Shown here one piece after another: positions 138-8,343 of a stretch of 8,343 bases of DNA. The notes under the pieces were generated by a model, which did no database searches, had not been told where the DNA came from, and saw nothing but the letters and a program-made list of their open reading frames with translations. The stretch lies in the IMG/VR virus record IMGVR_UViG_3300025343_000001; one strand, 5' to 3'. The position numbers and the translations under genes were made by a program. Numbering within the stretch: the first letter of the stretch is position 1; each line of letters begins with the position of its first letter. The DNA is from a virus.

Positions 138-350
138 CAAGCCGGTTGATTTGAACCCCTGATTGATCATGTAGAGACCGGGCATCGCGAATAGAAACGC
201 AACTGCAACAGCTCGCATTATCACCCACGAATGTGAAGTCCACGGTTCGACCGGGGAGGTCGAGCGGATCACGACTAGATCGACAAAGCGGTCGATCGGG
301 TTCGTGGGTGTGTCATATTTGGAACTCATAATGTGAGGTTCGAGGGAGGG

Positions 351-752
351 TTACCGAACAGCGACACCCCAGGCGACGACGGTCGCGAGGAACGCGACGA
401 TCGGGCCGAGGTTGCTGCTAGTGTTGATAACGTCGGCGACCTGGGGAACGTACTGGTAGCTCGCGATGATGACCGGGCCGAGAGCGATCGCGACCTGTTC
501 CCACTGCTCGTAACTGTCAAACTGCTTAGTCTCACTGCTGGCGAAGGCAATCGCGTAGGCGCCCAGGGAGATGAATGTGGCGTGTTCGGCGGTGAGCGTG
601 TAGTCGATCCACGTCAGCAGCACCTCCGAGATCCCGCCGAACTGGTAGAGCCCGGCGATGATGAACACGACTGACAGCAGCGCGGGAAGCGTCCGCAGGT
701 GAGTGTAATCCGAGAGGACGTTGCCCATCGAGTTTGAGTAGGACGACGCCAT
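351..752 (-). CDS. Small integral membrane protein, about 4 predicted TM helices (possible virion internal membrane protein, VP3-like)
   Basis: 133-aa ORF with four hydrophobic stretches (LPALLSVVFIIAGLY, ATFISLGAYAIAFA, VAIALGPVIIASY, LGPIVAFLATVVAWGVAV). Its ATG overlaps the upstream stop as ATGA at 752. The membrane-protein call is from sequence; the VP3 analogy rests on gene order only. Confidence 0.6.
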   Translation of the reverse strand: MASSYSNSMGNVLSDYTHLRTLPALLSVVFIIAGLYQFGGISEVLLTWIDYTLTAEHATFISLGAYAIAFASSETKQFDSYEQWEQVAIALGPVIIASYQYVPQVADVINTSSNLGPIVAFLATVVAWGVAVR

Positions 753-1099
753 CAGGAGTCACCCTGAATCTTGCAGAAGGTGGGAAGGTAGTTCCCGCCG
801 TCGTCCAGCTCCTGCTCTTCGACACCACGGGCGATCCAGGCGGTATCACCAAGTTGGAGGTTGCCCTGCTTGAGCGCAGTCTTCACCTCATCTTTGGCGA
901 AATAGTCCACGACACCACGGTCTTTGTCCTTGATTGTGAGGCGGAACCACGGACCGTATTCGCTTTCCCCTTCGGTGATATCGAGGACAAACCCGACCAG
1001 CGTTTCACCAGGAGAAAGTTCGATTGCTTCCGATCCATCCGACGTAGGCGCGGCGGCATCAATGAAGCCGTCCGGCGCGGTTGGCGTTTCACTCGACAT
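752..1099 (-). CDS. Hypothetical small acidic protein (116 aa from the ATG at 1099; the ORF is open back to an ATG at 1183)
   Basis: ORF 752..1183 on the minus strand. The internal ATG at 1099 is preferred because codons upstream of it run through an AT-rich promoter-like island. No recognisable motif. ATGA coupling to the downstream membrane protein gene. Confidence 0.5.
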   Translation of the reverse strand: MSSETPTAPDGFIDAAAPTSDGSEAIELSPGETLVGFVLDITEGESEYGPWFRLTIKDKDRGVVDYFAKDEVKTALKQGNLQLGDTAWIARGVEEQELDDGGNYLPTFCKIQGDS

Positions 1100-1195
1100 T
1101 GCAATTACAAATGTGAACGATTTGCATATAAAGCATGAACCTGTGCGGAGTGAAAGTAAAACCCAGAACCAGCAGCACACCATGATTTATTATAT
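1100..1195 (-). promoter_or_regulatory. AT-rich promoter-like island between the replication gene stop and the small acidic protein gene
   Basis: Only strongly AT-rich stretch in this part of the window. On the minus strand it carries TATA-like elements (ccatataaatataataaatc near 1185..1204, ctttatatgc about 25-35 nt upstream of the ATG at 1099) and a short T-rich run after the upstream stop. Archaeal TATA and leaderless-mRNA logic is established knowledge; the assignment here is inference. Confidence 0.4.
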
Positions 1196-3229
1196 TTATA
1201 TGGTACTTTTGACTGTAGATCGGATTTCGTCGAGCGCGGACGGTGGGAGCATGAGCTGGCCAGCGATGGAGATAGGCGAAGTCTCGCCAGTAGTCTCAAC
1301 CAGCTCCCTAATCGCAACCAGCTCGCGTTCACCGAGTTTCGGTTCGGGTGACGACTGTCTCTCGAATCGGGTAGTGTACCAGTTATCAGACCACTGCTTT
1401 GGTGTCAACCGACGATCTGCGTGAACAGTTTCGCACCACTCGCGAGCGACCAGCTCCGGCGGGGGAACTCGACCGGAGCGAACATCAGATTCGTCGAAGA
1501 ACGACGGGTTTTCCCAGGGTTCCGGCCCTTCGAGGGAAGAGGATAGCGGGAGATACGGAAAGTCGGTTTTATCCATTATCGAGCCGGCTCCCTCAACGAC
1601 GATCGTGCCGTAGGCCGTAGCACCGGGAGATCCGATTTCGGTCACTTCCTCTGTTGAGAGCTGAACAACAGCATCAGGTGACCATTCGGGTTCCCGATCG
1701 AATCCATCTCGTTTCGTTTCAGCAGGTGGAGCTTCAGCAGAATCAGGTATCGGTACCTCTGCTGAAACCGTATGATTCGGAGATTCGGTTTCAGTGGCAC
1801 AGAGGGGACAGGTATCTGGTTCGGCGTGGCCACACCGTCGAAGGCGTGTCTCAGAACCGATCGACCCGGCCGATCGAGCCGAAGGCCACCGTTCTGCAAG
1901 TGTTTGAGGGATCTCATCAGTCTCTTCCTGGTCATCTGCAGATTGAGACAGACGGAAGCGTGCAAGCGACGACTCAGATTGATCGATACCGTGAGGGGAC
2001 CCGCACTCCGCGCATTCGTAGGTGAGTCCCGGTCTTGAAGAACGGACGATTGAATCGCCATGTTCAACAATCTGACCGGTTTGGGAGTCGAGATACTGTT
2101 GTTGACAGGCATCGGCTTTGACAGCCGCCGTTGCCCACCGCGAGCGGCTGTATTTCTGTGTCGTCGTCGACCATTGAGAGGCGGCCCAAATTAAATACTC
2201 GTCCGAACGCTCAAGGAGGTCTTGGTCCGGATCGACGGCGACATATTCGGAGACGTAGGACGCGAAGTCCTGAATCTCGTCGTCTTTGCGCACAGTCACT
2301 GCACGATCCATATCGTGTGCAGACCAAGCGGCGCCCTCACACTCAGAGACGTGTTTCGCGACGACCGGACGGTAAGTCTCTGGGTCAGTTGCGACACTCG
2401 TGGAGATCGCAGCTGCATCGAGGATAACGACGGGATGGCTGTGAGAATAGCCCGTCGCGTCTTCCTGTGGGCCGGGATGGGGTTCGGACTGCCAGTGCCA
2501 GACGTATTCACCGGACGAGAGTCCGAGTTTGTCCTCAAGAACATAGCGAAGCGTTCGTTTCACCGAATTTGAAGAACCTGACCACGCATCACGAATCCCC
2601 CGATCGTGATCAGCTATCGGACGAAACGACCCATCGTCCTCAAGCGACGAGGCGGTCAGACCGAACAAAACCGTAACGGGCTCGGAGAACTCGGGTTCGC
2701 AAGTATGTCCCCTCGGATATTCTCCACCCATAAACTGACGCTCTAAAGCCTTGAGACGTGCGTACTGGGCAGTCTGATACGACGGGGTGAGACTGTTGTC
2801 CATATCGATCAAGAACGATTCGTAGTCGTTCCGGACCTCGGAGCCGCGAGCCATCCGAAGAAACTTGTCGCGATATCCTTCGTACCATTCAAGCATTTCC
2901 TGAATGCCAGCGATCAGCGGGAGAGACCCACGCGAAACGGTTTCCTCGATCTTTTTCTCTTCGGTTTCGCCAATTTCAACGACCCGAGTGACCGTCTCAG
3001 GCTCCTCAAGTACCTCTTCGCGAAGTTTCCGACCGTGGACGGTGGAGATAGGTTCGAAGACGCGATCTCCGTACCGTTCGATAATTCCAGAGATCCGTTC
3101 TTCAACGGTCGGGAGACCGGAAGGACGGAAAGATAGTTCTGGTGACTCAGGGCCTGTATCGGTCGACGCGGGGTTAGTCACGTTGGATAGCCAAGCCGCA
3201 TCCGCATCGGCTTCCCGCGGCGAGCTCAT
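1196..3229 (-). CDS. Putative replication initiation protein, 677 aa, with an HUH-like motif and a Cys4 zinc-ribbon-like region
   Basis: Longest ORF in the window. HSHPVVIL (codons at 2420..2443) fits the HUH motif 2 of rolling-circle Rep proteins. Upstream VLFGLT (about 2654..2671) is a weak motif-1 candidate; downstream tyrosines YRPVVAK and YVSEY (about 2243..2257) are motif-3 candidates. CAEC ... CGH ... CPLC lies at about 1799..2014. No Walker A motif. The function is inferred from motifs only. Confidence 0.5.
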   Translation of the reverse strand: MSSPREADADAAWLSNVTNPASTDTGPESPELSFRPSGLPTVEERISGIIERYGDRVFEPISTVHGRKLREEVLEEPETVTRVVEIGETEEKKIEETVSRGSLPLIAGIQEMLEWYEGYRDKFLRMARGSEVRNDYESFLIDMDNSLTPSYQTAQYARLKALERQFMGGEYPRGHTCEPEFSEPVTVLFGLTASSLEDDGSFRPIADHDRGIRDAWSGSSNSVKRTLRYVLEDKLGLSSGEYVWHWQSEPHPGPQEDATGYSHSHPVVILDAAAISTSVATDPETYRPVVAKHVSECEGAAWSAHDMDRAVTVRKDDEIQDFASYVSEYVAVDPDQDLLERSDEYLIWAASQWSTTTQKYSRSRWATAAVKADACQQQYLDSQTGQIVEHGDSIVRSSRPGLTYECAECGSPHGIDQSESSLARFRLSQSADDQEETDEIPQTLAERWPSARSAGSIGSETRLRRCGHAEPDTCPLCATETESPNHTVSAEVPIPDSAEAPPAETKRDGFDREPEWSPDAVVQLSTEEVTEIGSPGATAYGTIVVEGAGSIMDKTDFPYLPLSSSLEGPEPWENPSFFDESDVRSGRVPPPELVAREWCETVHADRRLTPKQWSDNWYTTRFERQSSPEPKLGERELVAIRELVETTGETSPISIAGQLMLPPSALDEIRSTVKSTI

Positions 3230-3254
3230 CGGTCACCTGCAGTCGACTCCATGT

Positions 3255-3671
3255 TCACAGAAACCGCCCCCGCCCAGCAGACTCGGAGAGGCCCGGCCCA
3301 AGGCCGGGTGCGGCGACAGAGTCGCCGGTCGGGTCAGCCCCCCGTTGAAGGGGGGCTGCTTCCGCCCGTGATTGCGACGGCGATTGGCGCTCGCCGTCGC
3401 TTCCGCCACCGCCACTCGTTTGGCGAGCTTCGGTCGCCTGTGAGCGGTCGGCGCAGCTAGATCCGCGTTCGAGGCAGTCGAGCGCGTGGCCGTATTCGAT
3501 TCCCGTGGTCAGGTTGCTGGTACATCTCTGTCCGCAGACAGGACACCAGAATTCACCCGGGCCGTCAGCGGTGAGATGAGAGTTGGAGTTAGAACGGGAA
3601 CCGAGAGTCGCGTCGCTGGAGAGATCATCTAGATCGGCGTCCTCGACGAAGTCGGAGAGATCGTCGTCCAT
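3255..3671 (-). CDS. Small zinc-finger protein with acidic N-terminus (138 aa from the ATG at 3671; the ORF is open back to 3794)
   Basis: ORF 3255..3794. The ATG at 3671 is preferred because upstream codons cross the AT-rich promoter island and hairpins. Contains CPVCGQRC ... H ... C ... C (CxxC plus His/Cys). N-terminus MDDDLSDFVEDADLDDL is encoded by the 48-bp repeat. Confidence 0.5.
   Translation of the reverse strand: MDDDLSDFVEDADLDDLSSDATLGSRSNSNSHLTADGPGEFWCPVCGQRCTSNLTTGIEYGHALDCLERGSSCADRSQATEARQTSGGGGSDGERQSPSQSRAEAAPLQRGADPTGDSVAAPGLGPGLSESAGRGRFL
3292..3357. promoter_or_regulatory. Cluster of three consecutive perfect GC-rich hairpins just upstream of the replication gene start (candidate origin or operator)
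   Basis: Hairpin 1: cccggcc/ggccggg, 7-bp stem, loop caa (3292..3308). Hairpin 2: cggcgac/gtcgccg, 7-bp stem, loop aga (3311..3327). Hairpin 3: agcccccc/ggggggct, 8-bp stem, loop gttgaa (3336..3357). It overlaps the 3' end of the zinc-finger ORF. Confidence 0.4.
3621..3668. repeat. 48-bp imperfect direct repeat, copy A (43/48 identical to 4903..4950); encodes acidic motif DDDLSDFVEDADLDDL
   Basis: Manual alignment of gagatcAtctagatcggCgtcctcgacgaAgtcggagagAtcgtcgTc against copy B gives 5 mismatches. Contains tctagatcgg. Confidence 0.85.
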
Positions 3672-3735
3672 GACGAAATTAATTCTAGGGAGATACAACA
3701 TATATGTTTTGGTCTGTGATAGCAGTGTTGACACT
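3672..3735 (-). promoter_or_regulatory. AT-rich promoter-like island upstream of the zinc-finger and replication gene pair
   Basis: Minus strand reads aaaacatatatgttgtatctccctagaattaatttcgtc immediately before the ATG at 3671. A TATA-like element sits about 25-35 nt upstream of the start codon, consistent with a leaderless transcript. Confidence 0.4.
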
Positions 3736-3751
3736 AAGGGTATTGTAAGCC

Positions 3752-3812
3752 GCGCGGCCCCCCACAAGGAGGGGCCGCGCAGGCTGCCGCCCACTGAAAA
3801 GGGTGGGTGGGT
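3752..3812 (-). terminator. Hairpin plus T-tract terminator-like structure downstream of the NTPase gene
   Basis: Perfect 10-bp GC stem gcgcggcccc/ggggccgcgc (3752..3761 with 3771..3780, 9-nt loop), followed by a second shorter hairpin cccac/gtggg whose loop on the coding strand contains TTTT. It lies directly after the NTPase stop and before the promoter-like island. Confidence 0.4.
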
Positions 3813-3860
3813 CGGTGAGTGGAGAACCGTGTTTAGATGTGATTATCGGACGAATTATGA

Positions 3861-4817
3861 CTATGCCGGTCCACGGTCGCGAAGCTCATCAAGAAGATCG
3901 GGCCAGTCGAGGTCGAGTGCGAATAGGTCGGGTTCGAGGTTCCAGTCCCACGGCGCCGCGTCATTCGGGTCCGGTTCCGCGGTGGCAGGTTCGAGATTTT
4001 CCAGGGACCCGCCGAACAGCTGATCGGTAGGCTTGTCGGCATCAGCAGGCCAGTTTTCGAAGAAGTCGACTTCCTTCTTTGAGTGTTTGAAGTACGCGGT
4101 CGTGAACAGCCGCTTCAGCTCAGGGTGACAGTCCTTGCCCGTGTGGAACACCGTGCCGAACACGTCGACGTTGACCTTCGCCATCCGCTTGGCGAGCGGC
4201 GAGAATTGCGCCGCGACCTCGTAGGAGTTAGTTCGAGCATCGAAGTGAGTCGACCCCTCATCGATGAAGACGAACTTCGGCCGATCGCGATGTTTGATGC
4301 AGGTGACTGCGAGGTCGTGTGCGCTGGTAACGACCTTGTCCGTGAGCGGCCAGGTCCGCGAGTTAGATATGACAAGGAGATCGTCGACGGTCGCGGAACG
4401 GAGCTCGGCAAGCAACGACATCAGGTTCGTCTTGCCCGTGTTCGGGTTACCGCAGCCACCGATGAACGCGGTCGCGTCATTGTTGGTCATCATGTCGTCG
4501 AGCCGCAGCGGGAGACGCAGCGCCGAGGCGTCGAGGTCCTGCTCAGTGATACCGACCAAATGTGAGAGCAACAAGGAGTTACCAGAATGGATCGCTTCGG
4601 ACGCCTGCCGGGACTGCTGGGTCCGATCGACGAGGGACAGCAGCTCGGAGTGCCCGGACACGTCGGGATCAATATCGTCGAGGAACACAGAGGCAGCCAC
4701 ATCGTCGGGAGCGAGTGCACCCGCACCGGAGGCGAGGTTTCGGTCCGTATCGATGTTCCCGGCCAGCTGTTCGGCGAGCTTCGCCGCGGTCAGCATCCCC
4801 TCATCGGAATCACCCAT
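3861..4817 (-). CDS. P-loop NTPase (Walker A GNPNTGKT, Walker B FVFIDE); candidate virion-associated ATPase
   Basis: 318-aa ORF. Walker A is encoded at 4428..4451 (checked by reverse-complement translation) and Walker B about 50 residues later at about 4257..4274. Start overlaps the upstream gene by 8 nt. Confidence 0.8.
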   Translation of the reverse strand: MGDSDEGMLTAAKLAEQLAGNIDTDRNLASGAGALAPDDVAASVFLDDIDPDVSGHSELLSLVDRTQQSRQASEAIHSGNSLLLSHLVGITEQDLDASALRLPLRLDDMMTNNDATAFIGGCGNPNTGKTNLMSLLAELRSATVDDLLVISNSRTWPLTDKVVTSAHDLAVTCIKHRDRPKFVFIDEGSTHFDARTNSYEVAAQFSPLAKRMAKVNVDVFGTVFHTGKDCHPELKRLFTTAYFKHSKKEVDFFENWPADADKPTDQLFGGSLENLEPATAEPDPNDAAPWDWNLEPDLFALDLDWPDLLDELRDRGPA

Positions 4818-5652
4818 CGGCGGACACCTCCGGTTTCTCTACGTGGCCGTTCCGATCAGTAGCGGGCTCGGGCTCCGAAAAGTCGAACCCGGACTTGTGG
4901 TCGAGATCGTCTAGATCGGAGTCCTCGACGAGGTCGGAGAGGTCGTCGCCGGAGTCGTCAGCCAGTCCGAACTCCTCAAGTTCCTGGTCGATCGCACGGC
5001 CGAGTCCGTCGCCCGAGTCGGGGAGCGAGCCGTCCTCGAACAACTCGACGACGCGCTCAACGGTGTTGCGGGTGGCGCGGCGGACGACCGTGAACGCGGA
5101 GGTTTCGAGGATGAATCCGCGCTGGGCGTCTTCCTGGAGTTGGCCGCGGCATTCGTGGACCGCACGAAGGGCACGGGTAAGCTCCCGATCGTCAAGCGTG
5201 CCGCGCCAGGTTCCTACGACGGTCATGTCTTCTAGGTCGACCTGTTTTGAGACGTAGAGGTTCGGGGACAGTTGGGTGATGTCGTAGGAGGTGTTGATGA
5301 ACCCGTCGTCGTCGAGAACGTCCATTTCGCGGAAGTCCTCGGGCGGGAGTCGGTAGATACCGCCGTCGAGTACGCGGGCATCGAGGTCGATCAGCCAGAC
5401 AAACGAGGGGTTGTAGAGCCAGCTAACGACCTTCGAGCCGGTCCACCAGCCGAGAGGCGTCGCGAACAACGCGGCGAATCCGGCGATGCGCCAGAAGCGG
5501 GGAATCGATGCGTCGAAGCCAGCGACCATCGCGACGATCGTGGTGACGACAGACAGCACGATCAGCTGGGGAACGCGAGCGCGGGCCCAGTCGAGTAGGT
5601 CCAGGTGAGCGGGCTGTTCGTCTCGGGTCGAAGGTGGGTCATGCTGAGTCAT
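4810..5652 (-). CDS. Membrane protein with two N-terminal TM helices and a long acidic C-terminal domain
   Basis: 280-aa ORF with hydrophobic segments VPQLIVLSVVTTIVAMVAGF and IAGFAALFATPLGWWTGSKVVSWL. ATGA start/stop overlap with the upstream gene at 5649..5652. C-terminus carries the acidic DDLSDLVEDSDLDDL motif encoded by the 48-bp repeat. Confidence 0.65.
   Translation of the reverse strand: MTQHDPPSTRDEQPAHLDLLDWARARVPQLIVLSVVTTIVAMVAGFDASIPRFWRIAGFAALFATPLGWWTGSKVVSWLYNPSFVWLIDLDARVLDGGIYRLPPEDFREMDVLDDDGFINTSYDITQLSPNLYVSKQVDLEDMTVVGTWRGTLDDRELTRALRAVHECRGQLQEDAQRGFILETSAFTVVRRATRNTVERVVELFEDGSLPDSGDGLGRAIDQELEEFGLADDSGDDLSDLVEDSDLDDLDHKSGFDFSEPEPATDRNGHVEKPEVSADG
4903..4950. repeat. 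48-bp imperfect direct repeat, copy B; encodes acidic motif DDLSDLVEDSDLDDL near the C-terminus of the 2-TM membrane protein
   Basis: gagatcGtctagatcggAgtcctcgacgaGgtcggagagGtcgtcgCc. Same reading frame and peptide register as copy A, but in a different gene. Confidence 0.85.
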
Positions 5653-6182
5653 GCTATTCTCTCGGGTTGTTCAACGCGACCGTAGACGCGGCGAGCGACG
5701 AGATACAGCGTGGTGAGAGCGACACCGAGCGCGGCGCCGACCCCAGCAGCTTGTGAGTCCGAAGCAGTGAACGGGCCGGCGACGATCGTCGAAGAGGTTT
5801 CGAGCGGGACGCCGTACAGTGTGGTTCCGTCGTCGACGGTGACTCCAGCGCGCCCGTCCGAAGAGACGACACGCATGCGGATTTCGGTCTTCCCATCGAC
5901 GATGAAGCTCTGTCTGTTAAGTTCGCGCGGTTCGCGGAGTACAACGGCCTCAGTGACGGTGACGCGATCGCGGGTGTCAGAGTCGAGGACCAGGACGGCT
6001 TCACCGTTGACGAAGTCAGAGGAACAGAGCCGAAGAGTCGGCGTTATCTCTTGTGAACAGGTTTCGGGCTGTTCCACGTCGGTCGGGTTCTCAACGGTCG
6101 CGTTCGGGGAGTCTTGAGCGGCGACAGATCCGGTCAGGGACACCACTATCACGAGAGCGATTAGGAAAGATCGAGGGAGCAT
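5649..6182 (-). CDS. Secreted type-I membrane protein with signal peptide and C-terminal TM anchor (177 aa from the ATG at 6182; the ORF is open back to 6356)
   Basis: From the ATG at 6182: MLPRSFLIALVIVVSLTGSVAAQDS is signal-peptide-like, and the C-terminus has AAGVGAALGVALTTLYLVARR followed by basic residues. The extension to 6356 encodes an Arg-rich stretch overlapping the spike gene in another frame and is probably not translated. Confidence 0.6.
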   Translation of the reverse strand: MLPRSFLIALVIVVSLTGSVAAQDSPNATVENPTDVEQPETCSQEITPTLRLCSSDFVNGEAVLVLDSDTRDRVTVTEAVVLREPRELNRQSFIVDGKTEIRMRVVSSDGRAGVTVDDGTTLYGVPLETSSTIVAGPFTASDSQAAGVGAALGVALTTLYLVARRVYGRVEQPERIA

Positions 6183-6187
6183 GGTTG

Positions 6188-7957
6188 TTAGTTGTTCAGA
6201 CCGAAGAAGGCGACCACGGCACCGACGCCGAGAGCGACGACTTCTCCGGGCAGTCCGAACATGTCGAGCTGTCCGAGGTCGAGGCCGCCGCCGTTGTTCT
6301 GCGAGTCCTCGAACTTCTCGATCAGGTCTTGATTCTGTTTTTCGAGCTGATCCCACTCCTCCTGTGAAACGTAGTTGTCGTCAGTCTGTGGTTGAGCGTT
6401 GTCGAAGCTCGTAGTCGAAACTTCTTCACCAGATTCAGTGTTCATCAACTTGTCGACGCTAAACGGGCCGTCGAGTTGCAGCGTTTCAAACTGCGTCTCG
6501 GTGGCGGCGGAGACGAAGCGCGCAGATTCAACGTTCGTGATGTTGGTTTCGAGGTCAGCCGAGGCGTCGTAGGACCACGTGCCGTCGCCGTTATCCGTCC
6601 AGTCAACAGCAGGGACAGAGACGGTTTCAGAGGCAGCAGTTGTCACTTCGATTGCGGTTCCCTCATACGGTTCCTCAGTGATCGTTATGGATCCACCATC
6701 GACCGCCGTCTCATAGGCGACCCAGTCGCCCGATACAAGACTCGTGTCGGCCGTGAAGTACACATCACCGACGAAGGTGGACGGGTCGTAGGTCGTACCC
6801 GACTCAATCGGGCCGTCCGACGAGTCGGTTAGCCCGAACGTGCCGGACAGCGTTGCGCCAGTGCTGTTGATAGTGATTGTCGCCTCGCGTTCGAGATCGA
6901 CCGGAATATTAAGCGCAATGAGGTCAGAGATTGCCTGCGAGGTGCCTTCCTCCTCGCTCATCATAGCAGCGCGTTCGCGAGGCGTCACGAGGTCACTGAC
7001 CGAGAGCTCGCCGGACTGAACATCGCCGTAGACGTTCGTAACCCACATCGAGATGCCATCCAAGACGCTTTGGTGCACGGTCGAGATCTCGTCATGGATT
7101 CCCTTCCACGTAGGCCCGTCTAAATATATGACGCTTTCGCCGTCGGGGTTGGGGTTGGAAACGATGACGTTGAAGTTATGGTCGACGTTGTAACCGCGCA
7201 CGTCCAAATTCAGAGGATCAGCAACGGCCCGTGCGCCTTCCACCATACCATTCACGCCCTCTAACTGAAAGGTCGACCCATCGAACAACGTAATGTCTCG
7301 GGTCAATTTGTCCGTGAAATTGCCGAAGTCGCGGTCAACCTTAGTGACCCCTGAATCCAGCACCGCACCCGGACTCAGGTCAGGGTGCGACTGCAGAGTC
7401 GACCGCAGATTGTAGAACTCGCGGACCGACTCATTCCATGTCTTGAGTAGATTCTCCTGAACCGTGCTCAGGTAGGCAGACACAGCAGATTTCGCCGCGG
7501 TTTGAACCTCAGACTCAGAGACTCCCGCGTTCAATTGCTCAATGGCGGCGATCTTGGCGTCGACGTAGGCGGTGTTTTCCACGCCGTCAAGGATGTTCTG
7601 GTTGTCGATGATCGTCGAGGCGTTCGTCGACTTCCGGGTTTTCACAGTCTGATAGACCTGCTGTTTCAGCACGTCACCAGTTAGTCCCTCAGCAGGTGCG
7701 TCAGAGCCGACGACCTCGTATTCACGGAGAGCCCAACCGAGTGCGACAGAGCCGGCGACACCACCGGCAATGATAACCGGAGCGATAGCCTGCCCGTTTT
7801 GGACGGGCGAGCCAGCGACTCGTGATCCGCCGTAGTAGGCCGCGCCAGCGCCAATTGTGGTAGCTCCAACCCGGCCAAGGAATTGTCGTCGATTGATACC
7901 TTCGTGATCTAGATCATCATCTAGATCGGTGTGTTTGTTCTTATTCATTGGAATCAC
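6188..7957 (-). CDS. Envelope/spike-like glycoprotein candidate, 589 aa: twin-arginine signal, large ectodomain, coiled-coil-like segment, C-terminal TM anchor
   Basis: N-terminus has INRRQFLGRVGATTIGAGAA (Tat-type RRxFLG motif plus hydrophobic region). C-terminus LPGEVVALGVGAVVAFFGL is a TM anchor, preceded by the heptad-like QEEWDQLEKQNQDLIEKFE. Five N-x-S/T sequons (NAS, NES, NFT, NST, NIT). The spike function is inferred by analogy to pleolipovirus VP4-type proteins. Confidence 0.7.
   Translation of the reverse strand: MIPMNKNKHTDLDDDLDHEGINRRQFLGRVGATTIGAGAAYYGGSRVAGSPVQNGQAIAPVIIAGGVAGSVALGWALREYEVVGSDAPAEGLTGDVLKQQVYQTVKTRKSTNASTIIDNQNILDGVENTAYVDAKIAAIEQLNAGVSESEVQTAAKSAVSAYLSTVQENLLKTWNESVREFYNLRSTLQSHPDLSPGAVLDSGVTKVDRDFGNFTDKLTRDITLFDGSTFQLEGVNGMVEGARAVADPLNLDVRGYNVDHNFNVIVSNPNPDGESVIYLDGPTWKGIHDEISTVHQSVLDGISMWVTNVYGDVQSGELSVSDLVTPRERAAMMSEEEGTSQAISDLIALNIPVDLEREATITINSTGATLSGTFGLTDSSDGPIESGTTYDPSTFVGDVYFTADTSLVSGDWVAYETAVDGGSITITEEPYEGTAIEVTTAASETVSVPAVDWTDNGDGTWSYDASADLETNITNVESARFVSAATETQFETLQLDGPFSVDKLMNTESGEEVSTTSFDNAQPQTDDNYVSQEEWDQLEKQNQDLIEKFEDSQNNGGGLDLGQLDMFGLPGEVVALGVGAVVAFFGLNN
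7906..7927. repeat. Tandem CTAGATC motifs including a perfect 10-bp palindrome gatctagatc, at the 5' end of the spike gene
   Basis: gatctagatc at 7906..7915 and tctagatcgg at 7920..7929. Encodes HTDLDDDLDH in the spike N-terminal region. Same core motif as the 48-bp repeats. Confidence 0.6.
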
Positions 7958-8135: not shown

Positions 8136-8335
8136 TGGCATTTCTCCCCGTTTTCGGAAGAGCATATTGAGCTCCCCGAACAGTGCGGGCAGTCTGTTCC
8201 GTGCATCACTGAGTCAAAGATGCGGTGGCAACTGCAACACCGATGTTTGACACAGGGACCGTGCGATAGAGCGGCGTCTGCACGTTCTATTCGCTGGTTG
8301 AACCGAGTCGAAATGATGTTGATGGCGATTAACAT
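8132..8335 (-). CDS. Small Cys/His-rich protein (67 aa), crossing the terminal-repeat junction
   Basis: CVKHRCCSCH ... H ... CPHCSGSSIC pattern. First gene of the apparent spike operon. No clear TATA box upstream, so support is weak. Confidence 0.3.
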   Translation of the reverse strand: MLIAINIISTRFNQRIERADAALSHGPCVKHRCCSCHRIFDSVMHGTDCPHCSGSSICSSENGEKCQ

Positions 8336-8343
8336 ATTCGCTG
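8217..8343. repeat. Terminal direct repeat, right copy (identical to 1..127)
   Basis: Exact identity to 1..127. The minus-strand ORF 8132..8335 runs through it, so in the circular molecule that ORF begins at coordinate 119. Confidence 0.95.

Follow-up and report, generated by a model that had tools for sequence, protein, structure and literature searches.

A putative rolling-circle Rep of the PF07232 family and a candidate origin within its gene in an alphapleolipovirus-like genome

The rep gene and its product

We examined a stretch of viral DNA of 8343 nt (IMG/VR record IMGVR_UViG_3300025343_000001), which in its entirety is referred to here as the window, and in particular an ATG-to-stop open reading frame (ORF) of 677 amino acids that the ORF listing places at positions 1196..3229 on the minus strand. 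We consider it very probable that this ORF, rep, specifies the initiator protein (Rep) for rolling-circle replication of a complete circular alphapleolipovirus-like genome, a protein that probably acts at an origin embedded in its own gene. A first-pass annotation of the DNA had described a 677-aa replication protein with an HUH-like motif and a zinc ribbon and without a helicase domain; all of these features are present, and the strand, which had been left unstated, is minus. The gene and the recognizable parts of its product are:

1196..3229 (including the stop codon), minus: rep, predicted pGRB1-like HUH rolling-circle initiator (PF07232), from ORF, Pfam, PHROG and tblastn
2114..3112, minus: HUH endonuclease domain, residues ~40-372
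2648..2674, minus: motif 1, TVLFGLTAS, residues 186-194, from translation and alignment
2420..2449, minus: motif 2, YSHSHPVVIL, residues 261-270, with the HUH pair H263/H265, from translation
2237..2269, minus: motif 3, DFASYVSEYVA, residues 321-331, with the YxxxY pair Y325/Y329, from translation
2003..2107, minus: zinc site 1 (CHCC ribbon), C375, H390, C406 and C409, from translation and conservation
1799..1834, minus: zinc site 2, C466-G-H468 and C474-x2-C477 (CGHAEPDTCPLC), from translation
1199..1462, minus: C-terminal helical region with helix-turn-helix (HTH) module(s), residues ~590-677

Family assignment was clear. Pfam PF07232 (DUF1424, 'putative rep protein') matched residues 108-371 with 59.2 bits against a cutoff of 23 (E = 4.6e-16), PHROG 10542 ('replication protein') matched residues 11-539 (E = 5.5e-120), and 190 homologues were found, many of them full length. 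In tblastn comparisons over residues 39-523 the product was 38% identical to HHPV-2 ORF1 and 37% identical to HHPV-1 ORF1; tblastn also returned the 'putative Rep' of Halorubrum virus Humcor2 (32% identity), an 8.3-kb Halobaculum plasmid, pHK2 and the small plasmids pNB101, pHGN1 and pZMX201, the last three being rolling-circle replicons according to the literature. PF07232 comprises the HUH Reps of alphapleolipoviruses, with HHPV-1 ORF1 as the example (PMC13107129), and the HUH Reps of these viruses have been exchanged with pGRB1-like and pTP2-like plasmids (PMC6668415, PMC10599561, PMC13595969). Rolling-circle replication has been predicted for the alphapleolipoviruses (PMC13107129, PMC13595969, PMC6668415). 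We assign the rep product to the HUH Reps of PF07232 with near certainty. For the comparisons below, relatives of rep were taken from a metagenome scan that yielded 80 loci with a homologous rep (labelled L0xx), while a scan of IMG/VR with the family alignment found no relatives. The nearest kin of the rep product are uncultured and proviral Halorubrum elements.

Residue conservation was scored in 79 diverse homologues, and a separate alignment of 12 sequences included annotated Reps. The first-pass annotation had picked out VLFGLT as a motif 1 candidate, HSHPVVIL as HUH motif 2 and a tyrosine-containing motif 3 in the right order, and each choice is borne out by the alignments. VLFGLT lies within TVLFGLTAS, upstream of motif 2, in a strongly conserved segment (T192 is threonine in 71 and S194 serine in 73 of the 79 homologues) that aligns with TAMLTFTASS of pZMX201 and TAMVTLTAST of pHGN1, the LT(A/F)S segments of the plasmid Reps. 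HSHPVVIL corresponds to residues 263-270, and H263 and H265 are invariant in all 79 homologues and in all 12 sequences of the second alignment, as are Y325 and Y329 of DFASYVSEYVA (79/79 and 12/12). Also invariant among the 79 are P266, the E249-P250-H251 triplet, H293 and H305, with E249 and P250 unchanged in the 12-sequence alignment too. The motifs follow one another along the protein as 1, 2 and 3, the order expected for rolling-circle Reps. On the basis of the alignments we predict that H263 and H265 form the metal-binding pair and that Y325 and Y329 form the catalytic tyrosine pair. The catalytic core of the rep product shows no departure from the family.

A pattern search of the rep product for a Walker A box ([AG]xxxxGK[ST]) was negative, as the first-pass annotation had noted, and profile searches returned no helicase family match to it; the fused Walker A/B helicase domain of CRESS-type Reps is thus lacking. 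The description of the protein as a divergent rolling-circle initiator holds as far as a rolling-circle HUH initiator is concerned, but for its group the protein is not unusually divergent. Similarly, it does exceed the small-plasmid Reps (338-388 aa) by a wide margin, as had been remarked, but its size is normal beside the 783 aa of the HHPV-1 Rep. Since the HHPV-1 protein shares the zinc and C-terminal segments, both the size of the rep product and its lack of a helicase are normal for the group.

An AlphaFold2 model built on the homologue alignment had a mean predicted local distance difference test score (pLDDT) of 83.7 and a predicted template modelling score (pTM) of 0.71, with pLDDT below 50 only at residues 1-31, 432-439 and 625-629; residues 1-31 (pLDDT ~30) are predicted to be disordered. 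The best Foldseek match was MVM NS1 (E = 0.026, probability 0.91), and the origin-binding domain of RepB from pMV158 was also returned, whereas PDB sequence searches with the single sequence and with profiles gave nothing meaningful. The modelled fold matches that of HUH nucleases, as the structure prediction proposed with the first-pass annotation was meant to check, the Foldseek support being weak but consistent. The predicted architecture comprises a disordered tail (1-31), the HUH domain (~40-372), the CHCC ribbon (375-409), a linker, a zinc knuckle (466-477), a beta-rich region (~505-545) and the HTH region (~590-677).

The CxxC ... CxxC pattern noted earlier corresponds to C406-x2-C409 and C474-x2-C477, which belong to two separate sites. 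All four residues of the ribbon, C375, H390, C406 and C409, are invariant (79/79 each). C474 of the second site is present in 62 of the 79 homologues, the segment being deleted in the rest, and this site is common to the HHPV-1 Rep. Residues 440-677 had no Pfam or NCBIfam match. Modelled alone, the C-terminal region gave a result (pLDDT 70.7, pTM 0.35) that was poorer than the full-length model, and in this region only the HTH helices were interpretable; the confident terminal helices resemble tri-helical HTH modules, first that of Tc3 (7.2), then those of IstA, Myb-like, homeodomain and Lrp-type proteins. Judging from fold similarity, both zinc sites (ribbon and knuckle) and the C-terminal HTH region most likely serve to bind origin DNA. 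The zinc/HTH half may also contact host factors.

A conserved block inside rep as candidate origin

Near its 5' end rep contains a 30-nt block that, in our judgement, is probably the double-strand origin (DSO). The features of this region are:

3167..3196, minus (reads 3196..3167): candidate DSO, GCTTGGCTATCCAACGTGACTAACCCCGCG, rep codons 12-21, from conservation and positional homology
3190..3196, minus: heptamer GCTTGGC
3197..3208, minus: tandem GATGCG GATGCG, directly 5' of the heptamer, from sequence
3214..3219, minus: CGCGGG, possible upstream arm that would pair with CCCGCG (3167..3172) and enclose the heptamer, from a DNA minimum-free-energy fold, weak

A passage of PMC9569500, citing Zhou 2008, gives TCTCGGCnnnCnnnG as the DSO of haloarchaeal plasmids that use rolling-circle replication (RCR). 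HHPV-1, pHK2, pZMX201, pHGN1 and pNB101 each have exactly one TCTCGGC; it lies on the rep-sense strand, at the rep start or just within it, and the 30-nt block of the window stands at the homologous position. Zhou et al. 2008 reportedly placed the cut at TCTC/GGC, and by analogy we would place the nick in the window between T3193 and G3192 (GCTT/GGC) on the rep-sense strand. Among the 80 metagenomic rep loci, 70 carry the block ...[T/G/C]CT[C/T]GGCnnTCCAACnnGAnT[T/A]ACCCCGCG; one further locus (L059) has the block with a single G-to-T variant in the heptamer, and the other nine are truncated at the 5' end. Every one of the 71 loci that retain the rep 5' end therefore has the block, which is conserved across the family with heptamer variants of the form TCT[C/T]GGC. 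Exact copies of TCTCGGC do occur in the window, at 477-483, 5449-5455 and 6227-6233 on the rep-sense (minus) strand inside other genes. We rejected these three as origins because their number is at chance level (2.5 expected) and none has the extended origin block. PMC3384331 points to a supplement in which putative dso sites of these viruses are tabulated, and the origin-site part of our findings may already be known.

Codon conservation was analysed in 10-codon windows across 40 Reps less than 90% identical to one another. Third-codon-position identity was 0.86 at residues 12-21, compared with 0.461 (standard deviation 0.075) for the whole gene, and synonymous-codon identity was 0.94 compared with 0.52. 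The 12 windows with the highest synonymous-site conservation all overlap residues 9-29, making this the strongest signal in the gene, while the windows of the HUH and tyrosine motifs are at background (0.44-0.55). Synonymous conservation of this degree, in a stretch that encodes part of the disordered tail of residues 1-31, indicates a constraint at the DNA level and not at the protein level.

In most lineages an upstream arm is complementary to the downstream part of the block, so that the heptamer lies in the loop of a hairpin with a stem of 7-11 bp. The arms covary between lineages, as in the pairs GTAACTCC/GGAGTTAC, GTAAGTCC/GGACTTAC, GGGGTTACTCC/GGAGTAACCCC, GGGGTTAGT/ACTAACCCC, GGGTAACG/CGTTACCC and GGTAACTCT/AGAGTTACC. 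Since MAFFT misregistered the upstream arm, whose loop varies in length, we scored each locus against its own and against permuted partners. The longest complement averaged 6.28 nt for own pairings and 4.63 nt (standard deviation 0.22) for permuted ones, and 0 of 5000 permutations reached the observed value, a significance that is overstated in that the permuted control ignores phylogeny; for shuffled upstream sequence the mean was 3.31.

These data could also be read as constraint on an RNA or translation element, such as 5' structure of the mRNA or a regulatory site, in place of an origin. At 30-60 nt from the start of the ORF, the block is in a region whose mRNA structure may influence translation, and the covarying hairpin could pair equally well in RNA. 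We nevertheless consider this explanation unlikely, given that the heptamer, in this very context, has been described as the DSO in related plasmids and that the annotated rep ORFs of pHGN1 and pNB101 do not include it, which points to a function of the DNA that is independent of translation.

The assignment of the block as the probable origin in the window itself derives from positional homology and sequence conservation, not from a hairpin. The tandem GATGCG repeats stand where other lineages have the hairpin arm, and they encode D-A-D-A of the N-terminal tail of Rep. L016 has five (G/A)-variant copies of GATGCG at the equivalent place (L016:237-266). The tandem copies are possible iteron-like repeats.

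Several points count against rep as a rolling-circle gene with its own embedded origin. When GCTTGGCTATCCAAC of the window is compared with TCTCGGCnnnCnnnG, C at +11 is kept, but the heptamer GCTTGGC agrees with TCTCGGC in only five of seven bases and the last consensus G is replaced by C. The clade to which the window belongs is without a covarying upstream arm, and no pairing beyond a 6-bp GC stem can form there. In the codon analysis, loci were chosen by a pattern that contains part of the origin block, a selection bias that we take to be small, since none of the loci with a 5' end lacks the block. The Foldseek matches to HUH structures are weak (best E = 0.026). Finally, the literature treats rolling-circle replication of alphapleolipoviruses as a prediction.

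The remodelled appearance of the window origin suggests a more speculative combination of ideas, which taken as a whole we regard as doubtful. The first ~31 codons of rep would mainly carry the origin, with the disordered tail dictated by the DNA; in the window clade the origin would have been remodelled, the heptamer changing from TCTC/GGC to GCTT/GGC (Arg to Trp) and the hairpin arm giving way to tandem GATGCG, and Rep-origin specificity would have shifted, the shift being read out by the C-terminal half with its zinc ribbon and HTH region; this half might also enlist a host helicase instead of carrying one fused to it.

The first-pass annotation had instead proposed the hairpins at 3292..3357 as the target for nicking. 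They belong to a larger cluster:

3245..3400, no strand assigned: four consecutive GC-rich hairpins, containing 3292..3357, from folding and an alignment of relatives

If this cluster were the DSO nicked by Rep, its place just upstream of rep would be suitable, and it does fold better than shuffled sequence (z-score -3.3). Comparison of the window with L011 shows compensatory changes that preserve the stems: stem 1 has three double changes, stem 2 a swap of C-run and G-run, stem 3 a change from A:T to G:C, and stem 4 is unchanged with an altered loop. These changes mark the cluster as a true structural element. When the 254 nt preceding rep were aligned for 15 close relatives, however, the cluster proved to be an insertion of ~150 nt present in the window and L011 only and missing in 13 of the 15, although most of the relatives without it have Reps that are 81-91% identical. 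The cluster also has no TCTCGGC-like heptamer, and a universally conserved DSO-like block exists elsewhere, at 3167..3196. We therefore consider the hairpins a rather improbable DSO. They are better explained as an accessory element than as a conserved origin, perhaps a single-strand origin at which the complementary strand would be synthesised, a terminator (of the upstream small ORF) or a small structured RNA. In RCR plasmids, single-strand origins are known as interchangeable structured cassettes.

Adjoining rep upstream is a small acidic ORF with a CxxC...H..C zinc finger (3255-3794, minus, probable start ATG at 3671), and in Humcor2 similar 'CxxC motif' ORFs lie ahead of rep. Compared with L071, the hairpin insertion lengthens this frame by ~50 codons, so the C-terminal part of the small ORF is probably not functional protein.

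Proposed replication cycle and genome context

By homology, we propose canonical HUH rolling-circle initiation, the best-supported mechanism, which would proceed as follows. Rep would recognise the DSO near the start of its gene, at 3167..3196 on the rep-sense strand. With H263 and H265 holding a divalent metal, one tyrosine of the Y325/Y329 pair would cut GCTT/GGC and become covalently joined to the 5' phosphate. A host polymerase and helicase would extend the free 3'-OH round the circle; Rep is without a helicase of its own. The second tyrosine would then cut the regenerated origin, and the displaced strand would be re-ligated to a single-stranded circle.

Two other functions for an enzyme with these motifs were weighed. 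The rep product could be mainly an HUH Y2 transposase or integrase of the IS91 or Helitron kind and not a replication initiator. This is very improbable: two tyrosines are also typical of phiX174-type replicative Reps, integrated relatives have a tyrosine-recombinase integrase of their own (L089, 350 aa), Humcor2 has XerC/D with attP in a tRNA gene, and the family includes both the Reps of haloarchaeal plasmids described as rolling-circle replicons and Reps on circular elements of ~4.3 kb. The alternative raised in the first-pass annotation, a primase-polymerase (AEP) or other non-HUH replicase with a fortuitous HSH, draws on a length of 677 aa that exceeds small-plasmid Reps and on one Foldseek row at noise level (LigD polymerase domain, 2iry, E = 0.55), and is effectively refuted, the suggested Pfam comparison having returned PF07232 above its cutoff and the rep product having neither an AEP/PrimPol domain profile nor the corresponding fold.

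The genome around rep is alphapleolipovirus-like. The window has an identical direct repeat of 127 nt at both ends (1-127 = 8217-8343), and the database entry of the rep product derives from one JGI contig, likewise of 8343 nt, which makes the window a circular assembly with 8216 bp of unique sequence. The minus strand carries all of its substantial ORFs. The PHROG matches of these ORFs form the pleolipovirus core set, with all core genes covered:

6188..7957, minus: spike, from PHROG
5649..6356, minus: conserved ORF, from PHROG
4810..5652, minus: conserved ORF (280 aa), from PHROG
3861..4817, minus: ATPase-like protein, from PHROG
752..1183, minus: ORF2/ORF3-like protein, from PHROG
351..752, minus: VP3-like membrane protein, from PHROG

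Around the circle the order is rep, small ORF, VP3, spike, ORF, ORF and ATPase, which is the order of HHPV-1 and of the provirus in Halorubrum sp. BV1. The features that define an alphapleolipovirus genome, namely the circle, a VP3-like protein, a spike, two ORFs, an ATPase and an HUH Rep, are all present, and the window is a complete circular alphapleolipovirus-like genome of 8216 bp that is collinear with HHPV-1. DNA identity to Humcor2 is 81.5% in matched stretches within 306..5433 (~24% of the query), and the host of the window virus is probably Halorubrum. No integrase was found among the ORFs of the window and no tRNA in a tRNA scan of it, and an Rfam scan of the window was empty. A direct repeat of 46 nt, 91% identical between its copies, occurs at 3621-3666, where it falls at the N-terminus of the small CxxC ORF, and at 4903-4948, close to the C-terminus of the conserved ORF of 280 aa. 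Both copies encode the same acidic peptide (DDLSDFVEDADLDDL / DDLSDLVEDSDLDDL), which may be a shared interaction motif.

Relation to known systems

Specialists will find little surprise in an HUH Rep of the pGRB1 kind in this genome, as such Reps are known from alphapleolipoviruses and hundreds of metagenomic genomes have been described. What is modestly new is a quantitative measure of synonymous constraint in the origin block, the covarying hairpin that surrounds an embedded origin and the apparent remodelling of the origin in the window clade. The analysis provides a specific origin candidate, 3167..3196, for a virus group in which rolling-circle replication has only been predicted, together with a predicted domain map of the uncharacterised C-terminal half, with two zinc sites and HTH module(s). 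The origin and the domain map could guide the construction of Halorubrum shuttle vectors and of reagents in the style of HUH-tags for use in high salt.

There are also resemblances to the HUH domain of the Helitron Helraiser transposase and to the SIRV1 ORF119 Rep, where the likeness is at fold level only (7-9% identity); unlike the rep product, Helraiser has a fused helicase and acts in transposition. The Rep-Arvir protein (DUF7845/PF25227) of betapleolipoviruses, a sister genus, does the same job and has an HTH-type DNA-binding end, but its catalytic fold is of the Rep_trans/TBP-like, non-HUH type (PMC13107129). DUF7845/PF25227 was not among the Pfam matches of the rep product at E values up to 0.1.

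Within PF07232, the Reps of pZMX201, pNB101 and pHGN1 (pGRB1 family) share the HUH and YxxxY residues and the context of the DSO heptamer near the start of rep. They differ from the window protein in their length of 338-388 aa, in an identity of 24-28% and in being without the zinc ribbons, the beta-rich region and the C-terminal HTH. Large Reps of the family are also found on replicons other than complete viruses. Two contigs are perfectly periodic, with periods of 4273 bp (L056) and 4321 bp (L065), indicating circular elements of ~4.3 kb that were assembled past one unit. Each unit contains a single origin block and a single large Rep belonging to the family; the unit of L056 also encodes a 279-aa protein with weak DnaA-like and HTH matches and a small repressor-like ORF, and has no virus structural genes detectable with PHROG. 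The content of these elements implies that the large Rep also occurs on plasmid- or satellite-like replicons. In three other contigs of 3.7-4.4 kb (L074, L075 and L076), rep is cut at the contig start and the origin block lies near the other end, which suggests further small circular elements in permuted form.

Rep length varies among the larger relatives, from 619 aa in pHK2 and 643 aa in Humcor2 to 677 aa in the window and 783 aa in HHPV-1. Humcor2 resembles the window in its structural module (81% DNA identity), but its Rep is only 32% identical, indicating an exchange of the replication module. In the provirus of Halorubrum sp. BV1 (GCA_000746205.1) the Rep is 82% identical and the gene order is identical. 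This provirus is present twice, at the end of an 829-kb contig and on a separate 10.7-kb contig with an integrase (loci L088 and L089), and the two copies may represent integrated and excised forms or a split in the assembly. Both Humcor2 and the BV1 provirus carry an integrase, unlike the 8.2-kb genome of the window.

Close parallels exist with HHPV-1 and HHPV-2. Their Rep (ORF1), at 37-38% identity over residues 39-523, shares motifs 1-3, both zinc clusters, the ERWPSA and CPLCATETE-PNHTVSG-VPIP segments and the HTH-like C-terminal tail. The HHPV-1 Rep differs in having additional insertions in its C-terminal part, the HHPV-1 heptamer is of the canonical form TCTCGGC, compared with GCTTGGC in the window, and the HHPV hosts are Haloarcula (Haloarcula hispanica) compared with the probable Halorubrum host of the window virus. 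In HHPV-1, as in the window, the genes stand in the same order and a DSO-like heptamer lies in the first codons of rep.

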